Assembly (NCBI RefSeq): GCF_006345805.1 | Contig: NW_021836037.1 | Span: 1 to 25,886 of the forward strand | DNA length: 25,886 nt | Direction: 5' to 3' | Source: Octopus sinensis | Taxonomy: Eukaryota | Part shown: positions 2,353-23,970 of the stretch, in pieces | Position numbering within the stretch: position 1 is the stretch's first letter | How the letters are laid out: the number at the start of each line of letters is the position of its first letter | Notes under the pieces: model-generated | The model's input: only the letters and a program-made list of their open reading frames with translations | The model's database searches: none | Told to the model about the DNA's origin: nothing | Program-made: the position numbers and the translations under genes

Positions 2353-2574
2353 AAGGCGACGTGCTGGCAGATTCGTTACCGCACCAGACAAAGTGCTTAG
2401 CTGCATTTCGTCTGTTCTTACGTCCTGAGTTGAAATTCCGCCGAGATCGTCTTTGACTTTTTATCTTTTCAAAGATCGATAAATCAAGATGCAGCTGAGC
2501 AATGGGGGTTGATATTATCGACTTAACCTCCCCACCACAACCGCCTACGAAATTGCTGTCCTTGTGCCCAAAAC
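2353..2574 (+). mobile_element. Old, diverged relative of SINE family A with a different 3' tail
   Basis: Colinear with the head and body at 19916-20080 (GCTGGCAGA, GAGTTGAAATTCCGCCGAG, ATCGACTTAA), then ends in AAATTGCTGTCCTTGTGCCCAAAA instead of the Tx1-type tail. Confidence 0.75.
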
Positions 2575-2577
2575 TGC

Positions 2578-2679
2578 AAGGCAAAGTCGACCTCGGCGGA
2601 ATCTGAACTCAGAACGTAGCGGCAGACGAAATACCGCTAAGCATTTCGCCCGGCCCGCTAACCTTTCTGCCAGCTCGCC
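2578..2679 (-). mobile_element. SINE family A, 5' part with an intact, unoccupied target site
   Basis: Reverse complement GGCGAGCTGGCAGAAAGGTTAGCGGGCCGGGCGAAATGCTTAGCGGTATTTCGTCTGCCGCTACGTTCTGAGTTCAGATTCCGCCGAGGTCGACTTTGCCTT matches 19919-20020. Confidence 0.9.
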
Positions 2680-4237: not shown

Positions 4238-4782
<545 letters not shown>

Positions 4783-6660: not shown

Positions 6661-7044
6661 CTCATACAGTCATACACGCAGACGTATCCACACAACTCAC
6701 ACAGATACACAAGCAGTCACACATTTATGCACGCAAAAACAGAAGCACAATGCTTCTCCAGAGGTGGAGACATCCGACTGTGAATCGGCCATGGTAGTGG
6801 TTTTTATCTCAACAATAAGAGGTTTGGCTGTTAGATTAGCGGATGAGCTCAGTTGGGTATTTTTGACAAAGTTGATACCGTAGATGGCGTTAGTAACATA
6901 ACAAAATATACTCTGTTTTACTGGGCGGTTAATACCAACATGACCACCTATGATACATGCAGCTGGAAAATAAGCGCTAAGATATTCAAAATGGCGACCA
7001 AGAAAGATTGGATTTCCGTATGAGTTTTTTTCTAATAATCCTAA

Positions 7045-7426
7045 GTGAAAAACGGCGACGCCGTGGTGATCTCATTCTCGCTCACAACACCATAAGCAGA
7101 AAGTGTAACCTCTCGAAAGAGCTGTTCTTCACTCCTGCTCCAGAGCGTGGGCTGCAGGGTCACTCCGAAAAGCTCTATCTGCGACGATTTCATCTCAATC
7201 GAAGGAGAGGGGCTTTCTCCGTCCGGGTTGCGAATCCGTGGAATAAGCTGCCGGACGAGATTATGAAGATGCCGACGACCGCTCGGTTCAAAGTCTCTCT
7301 TGACCAGAAATGGCCTGAACTCTTTCTATGACCACCCTCCATGTACATAACTCCCTTTCCCCCTACATGGCCTTGCTTTTGCTTTTTGAGCCAATAAAAA
7401 TTGAATTGAATTGAATTGAATTGAAT
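7045..7426 (+). mobile_element. 5'-truncated CR1-group LINE 3' end (ORF2 C-terminus, 3' UTR, (TTGAA)5 tail)
   Basis: RRRRGDLI..GLQGHSEKL..FSVRVANPWNKLP..FKVSLD is the typical C-terminus of CR1-group ORF2; stop at 7329-7331; AATAAA then a pentanucleotide tail. Confidence 0.85.
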
Positions 7427-8397: not shown

Positions 8398-8589
8398 TAC
8401 CGAGGTTGCAATTCACACTGTCAGAAAACCGGCGAGATTGTCATGGCTGGCATTCCTTTGATCATAGACGGTTCTATCAGGCTGGTTTCGATGATGCTGG
8501 TTGTGGTAGTGGTGGTAGTGGTGACAGACTGGTTATTTCTAGAGTTGAGACAAAGCATTGTCGAAGAGGTGGGGAAGAGTGCAGGTTGA

Positions 8590-9332
8590 AGTGGTGGTGT
8601 TGGTTGTAGTAGTGGTGGTAGTGGTAGTTAGCGATCATGATCGTGATGGTGGTGGTCGCAGTGGTAGCAGTTGTAGTGTTAAGGACGAGTGTAGTGGTAG
8701 AAGTGATTGTGGTGGTAATAGTGATAGTAGTGTTGATGGAGTTGAATGTACAGGTGCAGGCTGCCGTGGTGGTAGACGGTGATAGTGGTTCTAGTGCTGA
8801 TAGTAGTAGTGGTGGTGCTGGTGGTAGTAGTATTGGTGGCAGTGGTTGTGGCGGTGTGGTTGATAGTTGTGGTGGTACTTGTGGTAGTGATAGTAGCAGT
8901 GGTTGTGAAGGTAGAGCTGATGGTAGTGGTGGTGGTGATATTGGTGGTTGTGGTGGTGGCGGTATAGCGACGGTATGGTGGTGGTATGATAGTGGAGATG
9001 GTGTTGTTGTTGCTGTTGGTGGTGGTATTGGTGGTGGTGATGGTGGTGGTGGTGGTGGTGGTGGTGATGGTTGTGGTGGTGGTAGTGGTGGTGGTGGTGG
9101 TGATGGTTGTGGTGGTGGTAGTGGTGGTGGTTGTGGTGGTGGTGGTGGTGATCGTTGTGGTGGTGGTAGTGGTGGTGGTTGTGGTGGCGGTGGTGGTGGT
9201 GGTGGTGGTGGTGGTTGTGGTGGTGGTATTGGTTGTGGTGGTGGTAGTGGTGGTAGTGATGGTTGTGGTGATGGTAGTGGTGGTGGTGATGGCGGCGGCG
9301 ATGGTGGTGGTGGTGGTGTTGGTGGTGGTGAA
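8590..9332. repeat. Degenerate (GGT)n/(AGT)n trinucleotide tract
   Basis: Directly visible; produces spurious poly-G/V/P/T ORFs. Confidence 0.95.
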
Positions 9333-9794: not shown

Positions 9795-9866
9795 CATATA
9801 TGTATATGTAAATATATATACATATATACATATATATATACATATATACACATATACATATACGTA

Positions 9867-10100
9867 GAGGCGCAATGGCCTAGTGGTTAGGGCAGCGGAC
9901 TCGCGGTCGCAGGATCGAGGTTTCGATTCTCAGACTGGGCGTTGTGTGTGTTTATTGAGCGAAAACACCTAAAAGCTCTACGAGGCTCTGGCAGGGGGTG
10001 GTGATCCCTGCTGTACTCTTTCACCACAATGGCGGTGCCCCAGCATGGCCACAGCTCAAGAGCTGAAACTGGAAAAACAAAAACAAAAAACAAACAAAAC
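9867..10100 (+). mobile_element. SINE family C head and body joined to the GGTGCCCCAGC-type tail with (AAAAAC)n
   Basis: A box TGGCCTAGTGG, B box GTTTCGATTC; homology to 4238-4530 stops at CTCTTTCACCAC (~10027). Confidence 0.8.
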
Positions 10101-10648: not shown

Positions 10649-11189
10649 TATTTCTTTATTGCCCACAAGGGGCTAAACACGCAGGGGACAAACAAGGACA
10701 GACAAAGGGTTTAAATCGATTATATCGACGCCAGTAGGTAACTGGTAGTTATTTAATCGACCCCGAAAGGATGAAAGGTAAAGTCGACCTCGGCGGAATT
10801 TGAACTGAGAACATAGCGGCAGACGAAATACCTATTTCTTTACTACCCACAAGGGGTTAAATACAGAGGGGACAAACAAGGACAGACAACGGATTAAATC
10901 GATTAATCGACCCACAGTCGTAACTGGTACTTAATTTAATCGACTCCGAAAGGATGAAAGCAGTCGACCTCGGCGGAATTTGAACTCAGAACGTAGCGGC
11001 AGACGAATACCTATTTCTTTACTACCCAAAGGGCTAAACACAGAGGGAAAACAAAGGACAGACAAAGGATTAAGTCGATTACATCGACCCAGTGCGTAAC
11101 TGGTACTTAATTTATCGACCCCGAAAGGATGAAAGGCAAAGTCGACCTCGGCGGAATTTGAACTCAGAACGTAACGGCAGACGAATACC
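10649..11189 (-). repeat. Tandem array of three headless SINE-A units (~180 bp each); the head is displaced to 16493-16558 by the LINE
   Basis: Units 10649-10832, 10833-11011 and 11012-11189; each reads on the minus strand GGTATT(T)CGTCTGCCG..GTTCAAATTCCGCCGAGGTCGAC..TAAAGAAATA. Confidence 0.92.
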
Positions 11190-11438
11190 AATTTCTTTAT
11201 TGCCCACCGGGGGCCAAACATAGATATGGACAGTACAACTGATGGGATCAGTGAATCGATATGATTTTACATAAATGTGACATCAAAAATAAAATACAAT
11301 ACATAAAAATCGAATGGAATACACAGTACAAAAACAATACAAATGAAGCGATGATCAAGTTACGCTCCGATCCCACAAGCCCCGATCTACCGCTGATACC
11401 TTTTTATTTTTCCTTTTTTTTTTTTTTTCCTCGTCTAT

Positions 11439-14400
11439 TCACACGGTTCCTTGCACGCACAACACTCGTGCAACATACTTCCATCTCTTTTGGAACGTAC
11501 ACTCTGACAGACACCTCTTCTCCAGCCACAGTTTCCTTTTCAAATGAAAAGAAAAAAAGGATCGTAAATTGTCACCAGAGATAAAGTTGCCTGTCTTAAT
11601 TCCTTTTATCCTAGTATTCCATACAGCCTCTTTTGCTATTGCTACAACCGTGAGAAAACAATTCTTACCTTCGTTCGTTAGAACTCCCGGTGGGTCAATT
11701 TTTATAATTGACTCAGTCGACAGCCGTACTCTTCCTTCGCCGGACAACAGATGTTCAGCATAAGCCCACATTTCAGTTATCTCCGGACACTGAACAATAG
11801 CGTGAGGGACGGTTTCCTGTCCCCACCGCATCTTGGACAGGTCGGCGACTGACGTTTACCATGTCTTGCGAGCTTATCCCAAACGGGCAAGGCACCTCTG
11901 TAGCATTGCCAGGTTAAGGACTTTTGGAAGTTGTCCAACGTTCTCAACCCGAATGTACGATGAAACAAGCTGTCCAGTTGAATAAATCCGAGACCTAGAG
12001 TCGACCCCAGGCCATCGTCGCATTCAGACTCTACCACCCACTATATAAAATCCGTGTGGAACCCCCACCGCTGGCGTTGCCCGAGCGCCGGAACAGCAAG
12101 AGGGCCTTACGGCACTCTTTATGCCACTCACTCGACCTCGGTCTACGAGAACACCAGGCTTCCTGTTCGCAAAAACTCTTGAACTCAGGGAACATTTGTC
12201 TGGCCAGCGGAGACCACACCCGTTCACTATCCAGGAGAATCCAGAGGTGCCTCAACCTCAACGCATGTCTGCGCATCATTAACCAAGGCATCCCTAAACC
12301 TCCATTTAAAGGCTTTTGACAGCAGACAGAGCGTTTCACAAGTGGCGACCTGCCCTTCCACAAAAAGCGAAAGAGCTGTCTCTCCAACCTGATCAACCAC
12401 GAATCCGGACAGGGCACGACAGTCAGGCGGTAGGTAATGACCGATGCGATAAACACATTGGCCACTTCCGCCCTCCCTTTCAGGGATAGCCACCGCCAAG
12501 ACCAAGTCTTGACTACTGCAGCCACCCTGCTCAATACCTCCGTCCATTTCTTCTCTATCTGGAGGCCTGGTCCAAACCAGACTCCCAGCAACTTAACCGG
12601 TCCCTCCGTCCAGCGCCTAACAACACTGTCTGAAGGCATCGACTTGCCAACCCAGGTGCCGAGCTGCAAGCCGACCGACTTTTCCCGGTTAATCTTTGCT
12701 CCTGCTACCTCCTCGTAAGCCTCAATAGTCTTACCTACTTCACGTAGGCGTACCACTGTGGTTACACTGATAGTGATATCATCCGCGAAAGCCGTAACAA
12801 ACTCCTCTCTAGTCCTGGTTCTCTCGGGGATGCCACTCAACCTTTGCAGTAATGGCTCGAGAGCCATCACATACAAAAGTGGTGAAAGCGGACATCCTTG
12901 ACGAACCGAGCGTCTGATGCAGAACGGCTTCGAAAGGAAACCGTTCACCCGAACTATCGAGTCAATGTTGTGGTACAAAGCGATAAACCACCTGAGGAAG
13001 CCAAGGCCCAGGCCAAACCGCGCAAGTACAGTCGCTAGGTATCGATGGTCAACCCTATCAAAAGCTTTAGACTGGTCCAAATGCACCAATGCCCCACCTT
13101 TGCCAGATTTATTACCAAACCTCTCTATGGTATAGCGAATAAGATGGAGGGTATCCTGAATGGTTCTGCCTGGGATGGCACATGTCTGTGCCTCCCCGAC
13201 TATACCATTCGCGACACGCGCCAACCTTTTTGCTAGAACCTTGGCCAAAATCTTCACTTCTGCGTTTAACAGAGTGATGGGCCTGAAATTCTCTAGAACG
13301 TCCCCCTTGTCCGGGTCCTTTCTGACCAACGTCACTACTCCCCGGCGCACAGATCTGGGGATAAACCCATTCTGTTTCCAGTTCGCGTACACGTCAGTCA
13401 GTAGTTGCCCGAACAAGTCTGGCATACATTTATACAGCTCGTACGGAAGACCATCAAGTCCCGGTGACTTACCCGCTTTACAATCGGCCAAAGCCTCCAT
13501 CACCTCCTCAAGTGTGATTGGCCCTTCGCAAGACTCCGCATCCGACCCCGAGAGGCACGGCAGCCCGGTAAGAAAGTCCTCGAGGGCTCTCCCACCACCA
13601 GGACCGCCGTCACCCCCGAACAGCTGGGCGAAGTACTCCCGAAAGACCTCACACATTTTCTCGGGTTCGTTTATCAAGACACCATTTTGATTCGTCAAAG
13701 ACCGAATAGAGGAACTATTTCCTTGCCGAGCTTCCACCACTCGGGCCCATCCAGCGGCTTTGATTCCTTCACTTCCCATTGCACGTAACTTAGCTCTGGT
13801 AATACTTCCCATGTGGTGGGCTTCAAGATGCTGGTTTAACTCCAGTCTTTTCACCCTCGCTTGGTCTGTATTACCAGTCCTCCAGGCTTCTAGTTCCTTA
13901 ACTAGACCATCTCCTATTTTACGTCCCTTCTTAGCTAAACTTATGCTAAACCTAATAGACTCATATTTGATGGCTCTTTTTAGGGCGTACCACCATTTGT
14001 TATTAATGATGGTACCTGTTAATGCCCTCTGTATTAACATCTTGATCCGCTTTCTGTACTCCTCAATCGCCAAAAGGGACGTATTGAGTTTCCAGTAGCC
14101 AGATCCCTGTCTATGCAACTAGAAAAAACTGTGGACACTCAACTATGGACTTATCTTTTTCTCTAATTAAAATCCTATCTAGATATGTTCTGGTAGACCC
14201 GTCACTATTTGACCACGTCCACTGTGGAGTGTTCGGGTGCTCCAACCTATATGGATCTGCTAGCTGAAATTGACTTAGCAGATCCCGAAAGCCTGTGTTA
14301 CATTTTCTGTTCATGTTCGAGTTTGAGCCAACACCATCTGTGTGTGCTGCACATATTGTATTAGAGTCTCCTAACACTACTAGTGAATGCGACGTGGCTA

Positions 14401-14788
14401 GGAACTTTCCTAGGCCACGAAAATATTCAGTTTGCGGGCCAATAATGTTTGGTGCATAAATAGCGACCAGCCTGATTGTCTTGCCACAACTGAATGTCAA
14501 GTCGAGAACGACCAGCCTGCCTTCTGGGTCAGAAAAAACCAACTTTTTCTCGGCTACCCGGTTTCTTTTTAGTAGGACCAACACCCCACCCCCACCTCCC
14601 GCCCGACTCGGAGAAACGTATTTCTCGTAGCCGTTCAGGAGGGGGAGCAGATCTCTTGGCCCCTTCACCCGGGTTTCCGTTGCAACAATTACATCCAAAT
14701 TTCTCGACCTGATGTCATTCAGAAAGCGTCCTTGCTTCCAGCTTGACAACAGGCCATGAACATTTAAACAACCAATGTGAATAGCCAT
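11439..14788 (-). pseudogene. ORF2: APE endonuclease, reverse transcriptase and C-terminal CCHC (zf-RVT), broken into at least 4 frames
   Basis: EN: CLNVHGL, TET, AIYAPN, GDSN, YLDRIL. RT: KSPGLDGLPYE, FRPITLLN, LDQSKAFDRV, VRQGCPLSP, FADD, KLLGV. C-terminus: CPRC..ETVPHAIVQC. Breaks near 14115, 12035 and 11825. Confidence 0.93.
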
Positions 14789-14799
14789 CACTTACCTGT

Positions 14800-16356
14800 T
14801 TAATTAGGATTGTCCGGTGGAGGGGGACCCTCCACCTTTTTTTATCCAGGGTCGGAGGTGGACGGTCTTGGGAAATAGATTTGTCAAAATCCCGTCTCAC
14901 CACCGACACAGAATTATCAGGTGGAGGGGGAATCTCCACCTTTTCCTTTTCTCGCGGGATCGGAGCTGGTAATCCATGAAATATCGACTTGTTAAAATCT
15001 AATCTCAATGAAGATACAGTCTTTCTGTACTTATTTTGTAGAATTCTATAAGTCTTATTTGAGACTTCATATATGTCGTAATTGATAAATTCCTCTGAAA
15101 GGTTATCAATTTTTTTACAGTCTTTATGAGTTGAATGTCTCTCATGAGCTCAGTATCTTTAGTGTATACGGCTATTATGCCTTTTTCTTCTTTTTCTCTT
15201 CTGGCAGTCTTTTTTGGTCGTTGTTCTGTAGTAGTCGCCGCTCTCGGCTGGGTTGCTGGTTGTATTTTTCTTTTGTTTGTTGTTTTTTTCTCATCTGTTT
15301 CTTCTTTATCTTCTTCCTCTTTGTCTTTTTTCTCCTCTTCCTCTCTTCTTCATTTTCCTTGCAGTTCCTTCGAATGTGGCCTAATTGACCACATAAAAAA
15401 CATCGAGGTTTTCGGCCCTCAACAAACCACGAGGTTCTCCTCCCCTACCTCAATTGTCTCAGGAATTGTTTGAATTATTTTAGGGTCCGCTTGAATGAGA
15501 AGATTAATTGTTTTACCATCCCAGCGTGGGTTTTCCGTAGCGGTAGCCTGGAGGAGAGTAATTTTTTCTACCTCTTTGATTAGGACTGCCGCCAACACCA
15601 CATAGGTTCGACCTCTGGCGGGACCCTTGTAATTTTTATTCGCGACGTCCTCATCCCATATATAATAGGGTATTAACTCCACGTCGTTCGTTTTCAACGT
15701 TTCCACTGAGTTCTTGTGTGCTATTTCTTTATTGGTGAACCTTACTTCCACCGTTCCGAATTTTTTTCCTCTTCTCAGAAATACTACGTCTCGCCCAATA
15801 TTGGCTTTAAGCACTTTTCTATTTTCTCTTCTGACATTCTTTCAATTTTTCTATTTTGTAGACAATATGTTTTGAAAATTATTGTTTTTTGCTTTTCTTC
15901 TTCCTGTAATAACTTTTGCGGAGGTTCAATTTTCACACTGTTGTCATTTATTTCCATCATTTTGCTGTATTTCATAATTTCGCTTTTATTCGTCGACAGT
16001 ATCTGGGTTCCACCCCCAGCAGCCAACGCAAAACTTTTTTTTCCATTTTTTGGTTCTATCTGGATGCTAGGCACATCAATTATTCTCTTCGACACAATGC
16101 CTTTGTTCTCTGGCAAAGTCGGAAACTCTTCTGGTGAAAGTTCTGACGAGCTCTCAGACACATCTCCAAAAATATCAAATATATTATCCTCTCTGCTATT
16201 CCTTCTTGTAGCGGGGGAAACCCCTATTTCCTTGTCTGTAGTTGGCTCCTCGCCGGACATGTATTTCCTCCTCTCAACAGGAGAAACAAGTATTTCTGCT
16301 CCAACGGTAGGCTCCATGCTAGACGACATTCTTCCCCCCAAAGGGGGAATGAACAA
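14800..16356 (-). pseudogene. ORF1 (gag-like nucleic-acid-binding protein) with a zinc knuckle, frameshifted
   Basis: Pieces 15784-16356 and 15419-15814; then EGRKPRCFLCGQLGHIRRNC (CX2CX4HX4C, 15361-15402), a K/E-rich stretch and a Pro-rich end; lies directly upstream of ORF2. The start codon is uncertain. Confidence 0.8.
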
Positions 16357-16492
16357 CGCGTGCTACCACAAGCACTAAGTGTTTTCAATTGAAAACTCCA
16401 ACAGTTAAGTTATTCAACAGTTTAACAAGAAACAACAGTTGTTAACAATATTAACACCACGAAACAGCAATTCTTACTTCACGAACACATGT

Positions 16493-16558
16493 GCGGCAGA
16501 CGAAATACCGCTTAGCATTTCGCCCGGCGTGCTAACGTTTCTGCCAGCTCGCCGTCTT
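16493..16558 (-). mobile_element. SINE-A 5' head (A box) left upstream of the LINE insertion
   Basis: Reverse complement GGCGAGCTGGCAGAAACGTTAGCACGCCGGGCGAAATGCTAAGCGGTATTTCGTCTGCCGC, nearly identical to 19919-19979. Confidence 0.92.
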
Positions 16559-17550: not shown

Positions 17551-17867
17551 TCAGTAGTTTTATTTTAATAGCGTGCTTTCACTTCACTACCGAGCGCAGG
17601 TCTGTGTGCCTTAGGTATGTGATGTGATTTGTTGTGATGCTCTGATGGTTATTGTATGGAAAGTGTTCTGCGTAGGATGTGTGCAGTGCCTAGTAGTGCA
17701 ATTTTCTGTATGTTATATGTGTTTGTAAGTCCTGGTGTTTTTGTTATGTATTTGTCTGAATGTTTTTTTATCATGCCTAATGTACCTATTATGATAGGGA
17801 TTGTTTCTGCTTTTGGATTCCACATTCTGGTTACCTCTATTTCCAGGTCTTTGTATTTTGAAAGTTT
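17551..17867 (-). mobile_element. 5'-truncated R4/Dong-like (RLE-type) non-LTR element 3' end within (TAA)n
   Basis: Minus-strand translation LSKYKDLEIEVTRMWNPKAETIPIIIGTLGMIKK..IQKIALLGTAHILRRTLSIQ* (stop 17649-17651) is the R4/Dong-type C-terminus; flanked by TAA repeats, the known Dong target. Confidence 0.8.
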
Positions 17868-18186
17868 ATTATTATTATTAATGCCTAATGCACCTATTAT
17901 GATAGGGCTTGTTTCTGCTTTTAGATTCCACTTCCGGTTACCTCTATTTCCAGGTCTTTGTATTTTGAAAGTTTATTATTATTATTAATGCCTAATGCAC
18001 CTATTATGATAGGGCTTGTTTCTGCTTTTAGATTCCACTTCTGGTTACCTCTATTTCCAGGTCTTTGTATTTTGAAAGTTTATTATTATTATTAATGCCT
18101 AATGCACCTATTATGATAGGGCGTGTTTCTGCTTTTAGATTCCACATTCTGGTTACCTCTATTTTCAGGTCTTTGTATTTTGAAAG

Positions 18187-18188
<2 letters not shown>
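17773..18188. repeat. Four ~107-bp tandem units made of the Dong-like 5' junction plus (TAT)n
   Basis: Units start ATGCCTAATG at 17773, 17881, 17988 and 18095. Confidence 0.92.
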
Positions 18189-18230
<42 letters not shown>

Positions 18231-18875: not shown

Positions 18876-19915
18876 TCCGTATTCACTTATTGTAATTATT
18901 AAGAAGTATTTATTTCCTATGATGCATTATACGTCCGGATTGTGGATTTATTTTACTGGACGATAAATCTGTTAGGTCTTTGGGCGGGCATTGCTTTTCT
19001 GTGATGCTATAATGATTAAACTTATAACGTGATCAAATATCCGGGTTTGACTACATTGGCTTTAATTCATTCCATTATTTACTGTTTCTTTTTCAGTGCC
19101 TTTTGAACATGAAAATTTATATACAGCTGGGTGTATAGATATATATTCATATCTTTCACACATGATTTTGAGGACATTTATGGTTCACAGTGCTTTGGAT
19201 CTGCGTGGGGAGTGGGGTGGGGGCGAATGCTTGAGAGTTGCATGGATGCATATATGCTTGTATATGTGAATATACAGTTATATATGTATAGATATACATG
19301 TACATACATACATATATATTTGCATAAAGGGATAGGGGGTTTTTAAAGGAAACTTGACAGCCTGTTCCTTAGTCAATTCACACAAGGAGACAAAAACACT
19401 CGGATGCGGTAAAATACAGAAATGGGAAAAAAACTATATTCGTGGGAAAACTAACTGCACCCAGGCACTTTACCTATGACATACCTATTGATGTTATTCC
19501 CACACCGATACAAATTATGTGTTCATAATAAACACACCAAAGTACATACACACATTAGCCATACATACACAGTTACATATGTGTTTGTGAAAACATATGT
19601 ATATATGTATGTACTTATCTGTGTGTGTATTTATGTATGTATGTGGTTATGGATGTATGTATTAATGTATAGAAATATTTAAATACAAAAATACACTTGT
19701 AAGATATGTATTTTGATATTTCTCTACCGTTCAGAACATCGTTAAAACCACGTCCGCCATGTTGTTTAGTTTTATTGTGTTCTCTACACATTCTGTCTTT
19801 TACTGTGTCTTCTTGTCTTTGCGGTTGTTTTTCTTCCTACTGCTTCTTGGTGAGACTAAACTTCCCGTTTCAAGAATGCTAAGCGATATCAAATAAAGGG
19901 ATGAGGGTTTTTAAA

Positions 19916-20879
19916 GGAGGCGAGCTGGCAGAAACGTTAGCACGCCGGGCGAAATGCTTAGCGGTATTTCGTCTGCTGCTACGTTCTGAGTTCAAATTCC
20001 GCCGAGGTCGACTTTGCCTTTCATCCTTTCGGGGTCGATAATTAAGTACCATTTACGCACTGTGTCGAGTAATCGACTTAATACCTATGTCTGTCCTTGT
20101 TTGTCCCCTCTATGTTTACCCCTTGTGGATAATAAAGAATAGGTATTTCGGTCTGCTGCTACGGTTCTGATTTCAAATTCCCCGAGGTCGACTTTGCCTT
20201 TCATCCTTTCGGGGTCGATTAAATAAGTACCAGTTACGCACTGGGGTCGATGTAATCGACTTAATACCTATGTCTGTCCTTCTTTGTCCCCTCTATGTTT
20301 AGCCCCCTTGGGGTAATAAAGAAATAGGTATTTCGTCTGCTGCTACGTTCTTGAGTTCAAATTCCGCCGAGGTCGACTTTGCCTTTCATCCTTTCGGGGT
20401 CGATTAAATAAGTACCAGTTACGCACTGGAGTCGATATAATCGACTTAATCCGTTTGTCTGTCCTTGTTTGTCCCCTCTATGTTTAGCCCCTTGTGGGTA
20501 ATAAAGAAATAGGTATTTCGTCTGCTGCTACGTTCTGAGTTCAAATTCCGCTGAGGTCGACTTTGCCTTTCATCCTTTCGGGGTCGATTAAATAAGTACC
20601 AGTTACGCACTGGGGTCGATGTAATCGACTTAATACCTATGTCTGTCCTTGTTTGTCCCCTCTATGTTTAGCCCCTTGTGGGTAATAAAGAAATAGGTAT
20701 TTCGTCTGCTGCTACATTCTGAGTTCAAATTCTGCCGAGGTCGACTTTGCCTTTCATCCTTTCGGGGTCGATTAAATAAGTACCAGTTACGCACTGGGGT
20801 CGATATAATCGACTTAATCCGTTTGTCTGTCCTTGTTTGTACTCTCTGTGTTTAGCCCCTTGTGGGTAGTAAAGAAATA
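19916..20879 (+). mobile_element. SINE-A tandem array: one tRNA-like head plus five ~184-bp body/tail units, flanked by a 14-bp TSD
   Basis: Units start GGTATTTCG at 19963, 20142, 20327, 20512 and 20696; B box GAGTTCAAATTCC; TSD GATATCAAATAAAG at 19885-19898 and 20880-20893. Confidence 0.93.
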
Positions 20880-21047
20880 GATATCAAATAAAGCTATATA
20901 TTTCAGACTAACTGATTAGAGCTCGTTTTGGAAGGGACATGATTACATGATATTGAGAAATCGTATCATCTCAGAAATAGGCAGCTGAGATGCGAATTTG
21001 TTTCACTTCGTTATTAAGTATTTTGTGTCTTTAACACAATACGTCTA

Positions 21048-21289: not shown

Positions 21290-21723
21290 AAATACCACTA
21301 CTACAACTACAACTATCACTACCACCACCACTACTACTGCTACTATTACCTCTACTACTACCATCACCAACAACAACACCAACACCACAACTACTAGTAC
21401 TAGTATCAGCACCACCACCACCAGCACTATTACTAGCGCTACTACTACTCCTACCATCACCACCACTACTGCCACTATCACCACCACTACCACTAAAACT
21501 ACTACCACCATCACTACCACCACTAAAACCACTACTACTACCACTACCACCACCACCACAATACTACTACTACTAGCAACAATACCACCAATACTACTAC
21601 CACTACCACCACCACCACCACCACCACCACCACTACTACTACTGCTGCTACTACTACCACTACTACTACTACTGCTGCTACTACCACTGCTATTACTGCT
21701 GCTGCTGCTACTACTACTACTAT

Positions 21724-21758
<35 letters not shown>

Positions 21759-21772
21759 ATACTGCTACTACT
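21290..21772. repeat. (ACC)n/(ACT)n trinucleotide tract
   Basis: Directly visible. Confidence 0.95.
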
Positions 21773-23536: not shown

Positions 23537-23970
23537 AATGCTCCTGCAAAGAGAAGCAACAGAAATACACTACATAGACAAAACAATGCTCCTGCAAAGA
23601 CATGCAACAGAAATACACTACATACACAACACAATGCTCCTGCAAAGAGAAGCAACAGAAATACACTACATAGACAAAACAATGCTCCTGCAAAGACATG
23701 CAACAGAAATACACTACATACACAACACAATGCTCCTGCAAAGACAAGCAACAGAAATACACTACATACACAACACAATGCTCCTGCAAAGACAAGCAAC
23801 AGAAATACACTACATACACAACACAATGCTCCTGCAAAGACAAGCAACAGAAATACACTACATACACAACACAATGCTCCTGCAAAGACAAGCAACAGAA
23901 ATACACTACATACACAACACAATGCTCCTGCAAAGAGAAGCAACAGAAATACACTACATATACAACACAA
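23537..23970. repeat. 48-bp minisatellite, 9 copies
   Basis: Unit AATGCTCCTGCAAAGA(G/C)A(A/T)GCAACAGAAATACACTACATA(C/G)ACAA(C/A)AC. Confidence 0.95.

Follow-up and report, generated by a model that had tools for sequence, protein, structure and literature searches.

How can a SINE come to consist of one head followed by several bodies? The question is raised by two tandem arrays in a stretch of 25,886 nucleotides from Octopus sinensis (the window), which is microsatellite-rich animal DNA and for which an earlier note had proposed repeated self-insertion by TPRT. Our answer, to which we give a probability of about 0.65, is that a target-specific Tx1-like LINE cuts the head of its passenger SINE, and that the SINE cDNA anneals to the TSD overhang and so adds headless bodies. 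Within the window, the basis of this reading consists of the two arrays and one LINE copy.

Two arrays and their internal site

Array 1 lies on the forward strand (TRF period 184, 5.0 copies, 93% matches, score 1598) and is composed of one tRNA-like head and five bodies of ~184 bp. Its parts and immediate flanks are:

19875..19884, + strand: genomic flank repeating the upstream motif of the internal target (AATGCTAAGC)
19885..19898, + strand: 5' TSD copy of array 1, 14 bp; this exact 14-mer occurs elsewhere on the + strand of the window only at 20880
19899..19913, + strand: 15 extra nucleotides at the 5' junction, apparently copied from 19324-19350
19914..19962, + strand: tRNA-like SINE head with an A-box-like motif, ending at the target cut
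19963..20141, + strand: body u1, type a, with five one-base deletions
20142..20326, + strand: body u2, type a
20327..20511, + strand: body u3, with a b-type middle and an a-type 3' end
20512..20695, + strand: body u4, type a
20696..20879, + strand: body u5, type b, the presumed founder
20880..20893, + strand: 3' TSD copy of array 1, the same exact 14-mer
20926..20929, + strand: first T4 run after the head, a possible Pol III stop

A single 14-bp TSD encloses the head and all five bodies, and since T4 runs are absent between 19914 and 20925, Pol III should transcribe through all five bodies. The head is 94% identical to the head at 16559-16510 and 93% identical to the one at 2679-2636. Positions 19893-19918 match 19324-19350 in 25 of 27 columns, a score reached by none of 300 shuffles, and the extra nucleotides at the 5' junction are likely a templated insertion during end joining. 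Their source lies ~570 bp upstream, with the end of the TSD and the start of the SINE as flanking homologies.

Array 2 (TRF period 178, 3.2 copies) is found on the reverse strand, with bodies starting at 11189, 11011 and 10832 and ending at 10649. The earlier description of single-head arrays of five and three units holds for the unit counts and for one head each, except that the head of array 2 is not adjacent to its bodies but lies beyond a 5.3-kb LINE. A clear outer TSD was not found for array 2, the best match being 12/17. The parts of array 2 and two further SINE copies are:

16510..16558, - strand: SINE head of array 2, 5.3 kb from the first body, split off by the LINE
11012..11189, - strand: body u1 of array 2
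10833..11011, - strand: body u2 of array 2
10649..10832, - strand: body u3 of array 2, the most divergent unit and presumed founder
2575..2679, - strand: third SINE copy, a head with ~60 nt of body, its target site at 2635 unoccupied
2353..2574, + strand: older SINE from a sister family that shares head and core (~75%) and has a different tail and an altered site

The last two copies (2353-2679) are same-head SINEs placed tail to tail in opposite directions, and the younger one stops 60 nt into the body.

The unit-unit junctions of arrays 1 and 2 all fall at one nucleotide (6/6), AAAGAA(A)TA/GGTATT(T)CG, where the slash marks the junction; this is ~49 nt into the SINE, and within the window the tail-body junction is as invariant as had been claimed. 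The head and body start of array 1 (19914-20010) form a long hairpin (z -2.64, reached by 2 of 200 shuffles) whose 4-nt loop lies directly before the junction. With its loop at the cut site, the hairpin means that the DNA target is an imperfect palindrome.

On both strands of the window, the pattern AATGCTWAGCG.TAT has four matches, three in SINE heads and one at a genomic place. AATGCTWAGC precedes the cut site only at the heads (19953, 16519 and 2645) and at genomic position 19875; the earlier observation that this upstream motif is retained only at the head-proximal site, the one used by the LINE, is upheld with the addition of the genomic place. The latter is the outer site of array 1, where the ten bases before the TSD equal the internal upstream motif and are followed by G.TAT. 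The chance per position at this outer site is 2.3e-6 for the 10-mer and 1.3e-8 with G.TAT, for a pattern picked post hoc. Together, the target-like motif and the TSD around array 1 suggest that the founder SINE landed on a look-alike of its own internal site. At 19885 the overhang agrees with the body in only 5 of 14 bases, and the SINE there was inserted with its head. The outer-site mimic, the contigs that enter the head (see below) and the use of the same nucleotide for SINE tails in two arrays suggest that the internal site is a real target.

The SINE carries A- and B-box-like motifs in its head, assigned by their consensus. ARAGORN found no tRNA, and Rfam gave no match for head or bodies among 142 rows. 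Given the box-like motifs, the short and non-coding sequence, the high copy number, the tail shared with a LINE and the TSD at array 1, the element is classed as a tRNA-derived SINE (SINE2). A short-string search for a CORE-, Meta- or Deu-SINE central domain in the accessible parts of the supplements of PMC4824008 and PMC4758252 found nothing, and a 31-nt body pattern had 0 matches in viral, prokaryote-genome and metagenome collections. The bins of SINE head and body are the deepest by far in all four public runs. Among the 24 of 3,470 loose contig ends that were listed, some place the 5' end of the family near 16558, and those at 11088 and 11098 belong to an abundant sister family that differs in its tail and has head and core in common. 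Heads of this sister family would form a large target reservoir.

The LINE inside array 2

The element that separates the head of array 2 from its bodies has these parts:

11190..16492, - strand: full-length L1/Tx1-like LINE of ~5.3 kb, its frames broken in the window
16493..16509, - strand: LINE 5' TSD, 16-17 bp, equal to the first bases of the SINE body
14791-14111, - strand: LINE EN (Pfam Exo_endo_phos, E 5.2e-11)
14118-12031, - strand: LINE RT (Pfam RVT_1, E 1.9e-29)
11190..11224, - strand: LINE 3' tail common to the SINE, 30/34 identical to the tails of u3 and u4 of array 1

ORF1 contains a CCHC knuckle, CFLCGQLGHIRRNC, at 15283-15420, which was read by eye as CX2CX4HX4C; such a zinc knuckle in ORF1 is a feature of the Tx1 clade. 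Compared with solved structures, the LINE is nearest to L1 ORF2p (E ~1e-46, against ~1e-20 for R2), and its EN is nearest to L1-type endonucleases. The Atlas automatic cluster name is 'Transposon TX1 149 kDa' (0.96, rank 2). With an AP-type endonuclease followed by an RT in ORF2 and an affinity to the L1 group, we label the element L1/Tx1-like, the Tx1 name being that of the automatic cluster. The best named relatives of the RT among the 120 matches listed are from Argonauta hians (60% identity) and a cuttlefish (45%), which makes an octopod host very likely. Relatives of 1,150 amino acids with ~43% identity (proteins P0003-P0028) are found in large unnamed clusters (up to 732 members) from ENA assemblies. 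In seven RT-related metagenome loci (28-48% identity), head, body and tail did not score above chance (best E 0.13).

The junction of the LINE to the first body reads AAAGAAATT/GGTATTCG. The repeat of the 5' TSD at 11189-11174 has one T missing and its last base substituted. Since the LINE is flanked by a 16-17-bp duplication of the body start, its first nick would have been made exactly at the array junction, and its position fits re-use of the head-proximal site. A tail common to SINE and LINE is the usual sign of a partner LINE, according to the accessible parts of PMC3747384 and PMC4824008; here the two elements diverge at 11224 in 51 contigs of run X15. The tail has the same 4-bp stem in LINE and SINE, with folding not beyond that of shuffles (z 0.3 to -1.3).

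LINE-head junctions outside the window were taken from contigs of four public runs (X7, X12, X13 and X15, the last being an RNA run by guess only), in which contig depth is not copy number. Two contigs, X7-32 (14560-16523) and X15-24 (14755-16521), continue without a break from ORF1 across the TSD and into the SINE head, where they end ~30 nt beyond the LINE start. In two of the four runs the 5' contigs of the LINE thus enter the SINE head; the other two list no piece there. From these X7 and X15 contigs alone, a LINE that carries the SINE head as its own 5' end is a possible alternative. In the window, the one LINE copy has its flank in the target repeat (1/1), and a published criterion for target preference is that >20% of flanks lie in one repeat (accessible part of PMC4494074). 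Run X7 matched 1,726 records, as compared to 245,028-449,550 for X13 and X12; with so few records, its contig of depth 10 probably represents many collapsed copies. An X13 contig with 0 other letters has a depth of 647.8 against 4.6-8.0 for divergent copies, which is ~100-fold. These depths, which are not copy numbers, suggest that the family is young, with about a hundred members that usually have this SINE head as their 5' neighbour. Two-head products were not seen, nor was a 5'-truncated LINE at the target site. The joints listed (15 of 1,585) are all head-to-body; the joint 11121-11027 is likely a misalignment of similar G-runs and was set aside. Against the family contigs, the window LINE shows 12 gaps versus 8-12 substitutions per 1.8-2.0 kb. 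These gaps suggest consensus errors in the assembly, so one-base indels were not used for dating.

Origin of the added bodies

In the proposed mechanism, the endonuclease of a young octopod L1/Tx1-like LINE would prefer AATGCTWAGC/GGTATTTCG, a site located between A- and B-box, ~49 nt from the start of a tRNA-derived SINE head that is very common. One strand would be nicked at the slash and the other 14-17 nt downstream, a distance given by the observed TSD. A SINE family with this head has taken over the 34-nt 3' tail of the LINE and would be inserted by the same enzyme at the same site. The staggered cut would leave a head-side overhang consisting of nt 1-17 of the body, and as the SINE RNA contains these 17 nt, the cDNA could anneal there in register, with second-strand synthesis probably beginning before the head is copied. 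The predicted arrangement is head-(body)-(old body), without a second head. The upstream motif is kept only at the head-proximal copy, which would therefore remain the place where the next SINE or LINE inserts. A look-alike site in the genome would offer no homologous overhang, and the SINE would be inserted there whole, head included, as at 19885, which serves as an internal control. Self-insertion of the SINE would place the A-box beside the B-box, and insertion of the LINE would separate the boxes. A prediction of the model is that each unit owes its first 17 nt to the locus and everything after them to the incoming RNA. From the dimer stage on, further units would probably also be added by unequal crossover and by multimer RNAs made by read-through, so that growth would be seeded by TPRT and not strictly proceed by one unit per event.

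The allele at position 15 in the TSD zone agrees with this prediction. It is T in all five units of array 1 and C in all three units of array 2, in the LINE 5' TSD and in the third copy, and it is the only allele that splits the two arrays. Position 15 is a CpG transition, and other CpGs have decayed in 4 of 78 cells; chance sharing by two lineages would accordingly be expected in ~1 of 20 cases (~5%). Array 1 forms one group in 4% of bootstrap trees without the TSD zone versus 52% with it, and in the AU test a single group for array 1 was not rejected (p 0.058). The LINE at the junction nucleotide, its TSD, the common tail, the six uniform junctions, the outer motif and position 15 together make self-insertion by TPRT the probable origin of the arrays, and on the first, second, third, fifth and sixth of these points the claim of TPRT at a fixed internal site is strengthened.

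Other unit relationships are more complex. About six positions distinguish type a from type b, and type a has the LINE-tail alleles at 153 and 174; beyond the TSD zone, u5 of array 1 shows 6 substitutions to u1 of array 2 versus 7-12 to u1-u4 of its own array. The tail alleles and the position of u5 nearer to array 2 point to two source elements in array 1. Units u1, u2 and u4 group together (93/92, not starred) and represent one haplotype; u2 was aligned pairwise, the MAFFT alignment being poor at its 5' end. The third unit resembles a u5/u1 recombinant, its middle being that of u5 and its 3' end that of the other units, a pattern that fits a two-unit unequal crossover and would also fit a third subfamily. 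The mean numbers of substitutions in array 1 are 8.1 (u1), 7.6 (u2), 6.4 (u3), 6.7 (u4) and 9.4 (u5), without an age gradient; u3 of array 2 has a mean of 11.6 substitutions to the other seven units. In both arrays divergence is highest in the distal unit, as expected of a founder, but array 1 contains units less divergent than u1, so that the expectation of youngest units next to the head is matched only at the distal end. In array 2, u1 and u2 have in common a missing T in the TSD zone; this deletion is absent from the LINE 5' TSD, and the self-insertion model explains it only as an assembly error.

Several other routes to such arrays must be weighed. In one, which we consider unlikely, retrotransposition of multimers is the main process: arrays at a few master loci are read through by Pol III, the LINE enzyme copies arrays or blocks, and array 1 is a single insertion. 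The one TSD around a head with five bodies and the absence of T4 before 20926 agree with this, and inheritance alone would account for the T15 of the five units. It leaves the origin of the first dimer and the LINE at the junction nucleotide unexplained, and the order of alleles differs between the two arrays. As a second step, multimer copying is compatible with TPRT-seeded self-insertion. A slightly smaller chance is given to duplication at the DNA level alone, in which the body was doubled through the short G.TAT homology between the internal site and the target-like flank after the tail, followed by unequal crossover. The order a,a,b/a,a,b in array 1 is that of a three-unit array crossed with a two-unit offset, and the AU result allows array 1 to be one group. 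The window shows duplication of this kind in the array of 4 x 107 bp at 17773-18202, in whose units the element's 3' end is missing, and unequal recombination is the cause proposed for squamates (PMC10702118) and clams (PMC11481361) in the accessible parts of these papers. The two source elements indicated in array 1 by the a/b differences, the tail alleles and the closeness of u5 to array 2 argue against duplication alone, and TPRT needs no extra cause for the same junction in two arrays and the LINE.

Much less probable is a headless template, formed when the head hairpin with its loop at the cut site leads to RNA cleavage or to a headless subfamily, from which R1-like tandem bodies separated by TSDs would arise. 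The fold of 19914-20010 and the place of its loop immediately before the junction speak for this route; a template starting at the junction, however, would still need annealing to avoid a doubled 17-mer, the window has no dispersed headless copy, and the bodies lack an A-box. That the number of units is in part an artefact of assembly from error-prone long reads is least probable of all. The gaps of the window LINE and the many one-base indels in several units would agree with an artefact, whereas the differences between units are patterned substitutions, the junction and TSD logic is clean, and the 750 bp of extra sequence fits within single long reads.

TPRT-seeded self-insertion is the most probable reading of the evidence; strict, polarised satellite growth by single units goes beyond it. 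The idea of one unit per event is not sustained, because multimer templates are possible with the T4-free array 1 and because a two-unit unequal crossover would give its order a,a,b/a,a,b as well. With only three to five units in the arrays of the window, which do not group by array outside the TSD zone, the picture of a growing satellite is not supported. Locus-specific clades, which the earlier note had named as evidence against its proposal, are partly encountered in the order of units in array 1.

A wider reading, to which we give slightly less than even odds, is a self-targeting SINE-LINE pair. The LINE endonuclease would have evolved to cut the head of the most abundant SINEs of the host, and the SINE that captured its tail would seed new targets as full-length copies and fill old ones as headless copies. 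If so, arrays would log insertions from tail to head, and bodies and tails would be swapped under existing promoters. SINE and LINE would then compete for one site, and only the LINE would destroy the promoter.

Relation to known systems and other features of the window

The following comparisons refer to the accessible parts of the cited papers. A close parallel to a Tx1-type LINE with a passenger SINE and one common target inside another repeat is the crocodilian pair SINEU-3 and Tx1-Mar, for which tandem SINE insertions sandwiching a TSD were ascribed to sequential insertion (PMC4494074). Their target is a third element, Mariner-N4_AMi, whereas the octopus target is the passenger's own head, so that each new SINE would make a new target and added units would be headless. 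The AP-type endonuclease, fixed multicopy site and TSD are also found for Tx1L in Tx1D, Keno in U2 and Kibi/Koshi in microsatellites; a SINE head is not among the targets of the Tx1 families in that part of PMC4494074.

That cDNA anneals to the target, and that re-insertion at the 5' TSD yields polar arrays, is documented for R1/R2 (PMC2718515). Tandem R1 in Drosophila 28S rDNA shares with the octopus arrays re-insertion at the 5' TSD, polar head-to-tail order with TSDs as separators, and precise annealed 5' junctions. Unlike the octopus SINE, R1 is autonomous, belongs to another clade and targets a host gene, and its annealing homology comes from co-transcribed 28S sequence (PMC2718515).

The squamate sSat arrays are likewise tandem repeats of a SINE part with a longer terminal unit, but comprise up to 1000 units, as compared to 3-5 here, and were ascribed to duplication and concerted evolution; that part of PMC10702118 names no target-specific LINE. 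In the mollusc Scapharca broughtonii, TSD1-(SINE)n-TSD1 arrays resemble those described here in their single complete head, their headless repeats and their single outer TSD (PMC11481361). Their inner units also lack the tail, while the octopus units all have the full LINE-derived tail, and the term 'Tx1' is absent from the main text of PMC11481361.

The O. vulgaris repeat paper lists 13 recently active L1-Tx1 families and, in its accessible part, does not discuss their targets; the corresponding parts of PMC4758252 and PMC8967140 contain nothing on self-targeting SINE arrays. A literature search, with Repbase Reports, Dfam, subscription journals and the O. vulgaris repeat library outside its scope, gave no Tx1 element targeting an octopus SINE, no partner LINE cutting the head of its own SINE and no headless self-insertion arrays. 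The new part seems to be the passenger SINE that targets itself, and a prior description is possible.

If true, the reading links interspersed and tandem repeats by a defined retrotransposition reaction, where unequal recombination is invoked in the accessible parts of PMC10702118 and PMC11481361. The SINE head would join the known Tx1 targets and provide a route for exchange of SINE tails under an existing promoter. Ordered arrays would help to date subfamilies in genomes where SINEs make up ~11.6% (O. vulgaris, PMC13282606), and in the endonuclease one would have a new AP-type nuclease that is sequence-specific and has a target both short and readable.

The window holds further repeats. At 17773-18202 on the reverse strand, four 107-bp inner copies of a 5'-truncated element are each found by (TTA)n, with the 3' end of the element near 17555. 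The protein piece encoded there resembles the C-terminus of LINEs of the R4/Dong type, which target TAA repeats; for the 107-aa frame at 17649-17972, the Atlas gave only unnamed mollusc-rich clusters. The open frame 6981-7331 had no Pfam hit and resembles, by its motif, the C-terminus of LINEs of the CR1/L2 type. Copies from other SINE-like families, again with tRNA-like heads, are located at 9866-10027 (+), at 4380-4530 (-) and from 21047 and 3489 onward. A long inverted repeat at 379-702 is MITE-like and 80% identical over ~335 columns, and a 48-bp minisatellite occupies 23537-23970 with nine copies (96% matches). Long degenerate trinucleotide tracts, rich in (TGG)n at 8480-9330 and in (TAC/CAC)n at 21290-21770, are ~71% mutually complementary.
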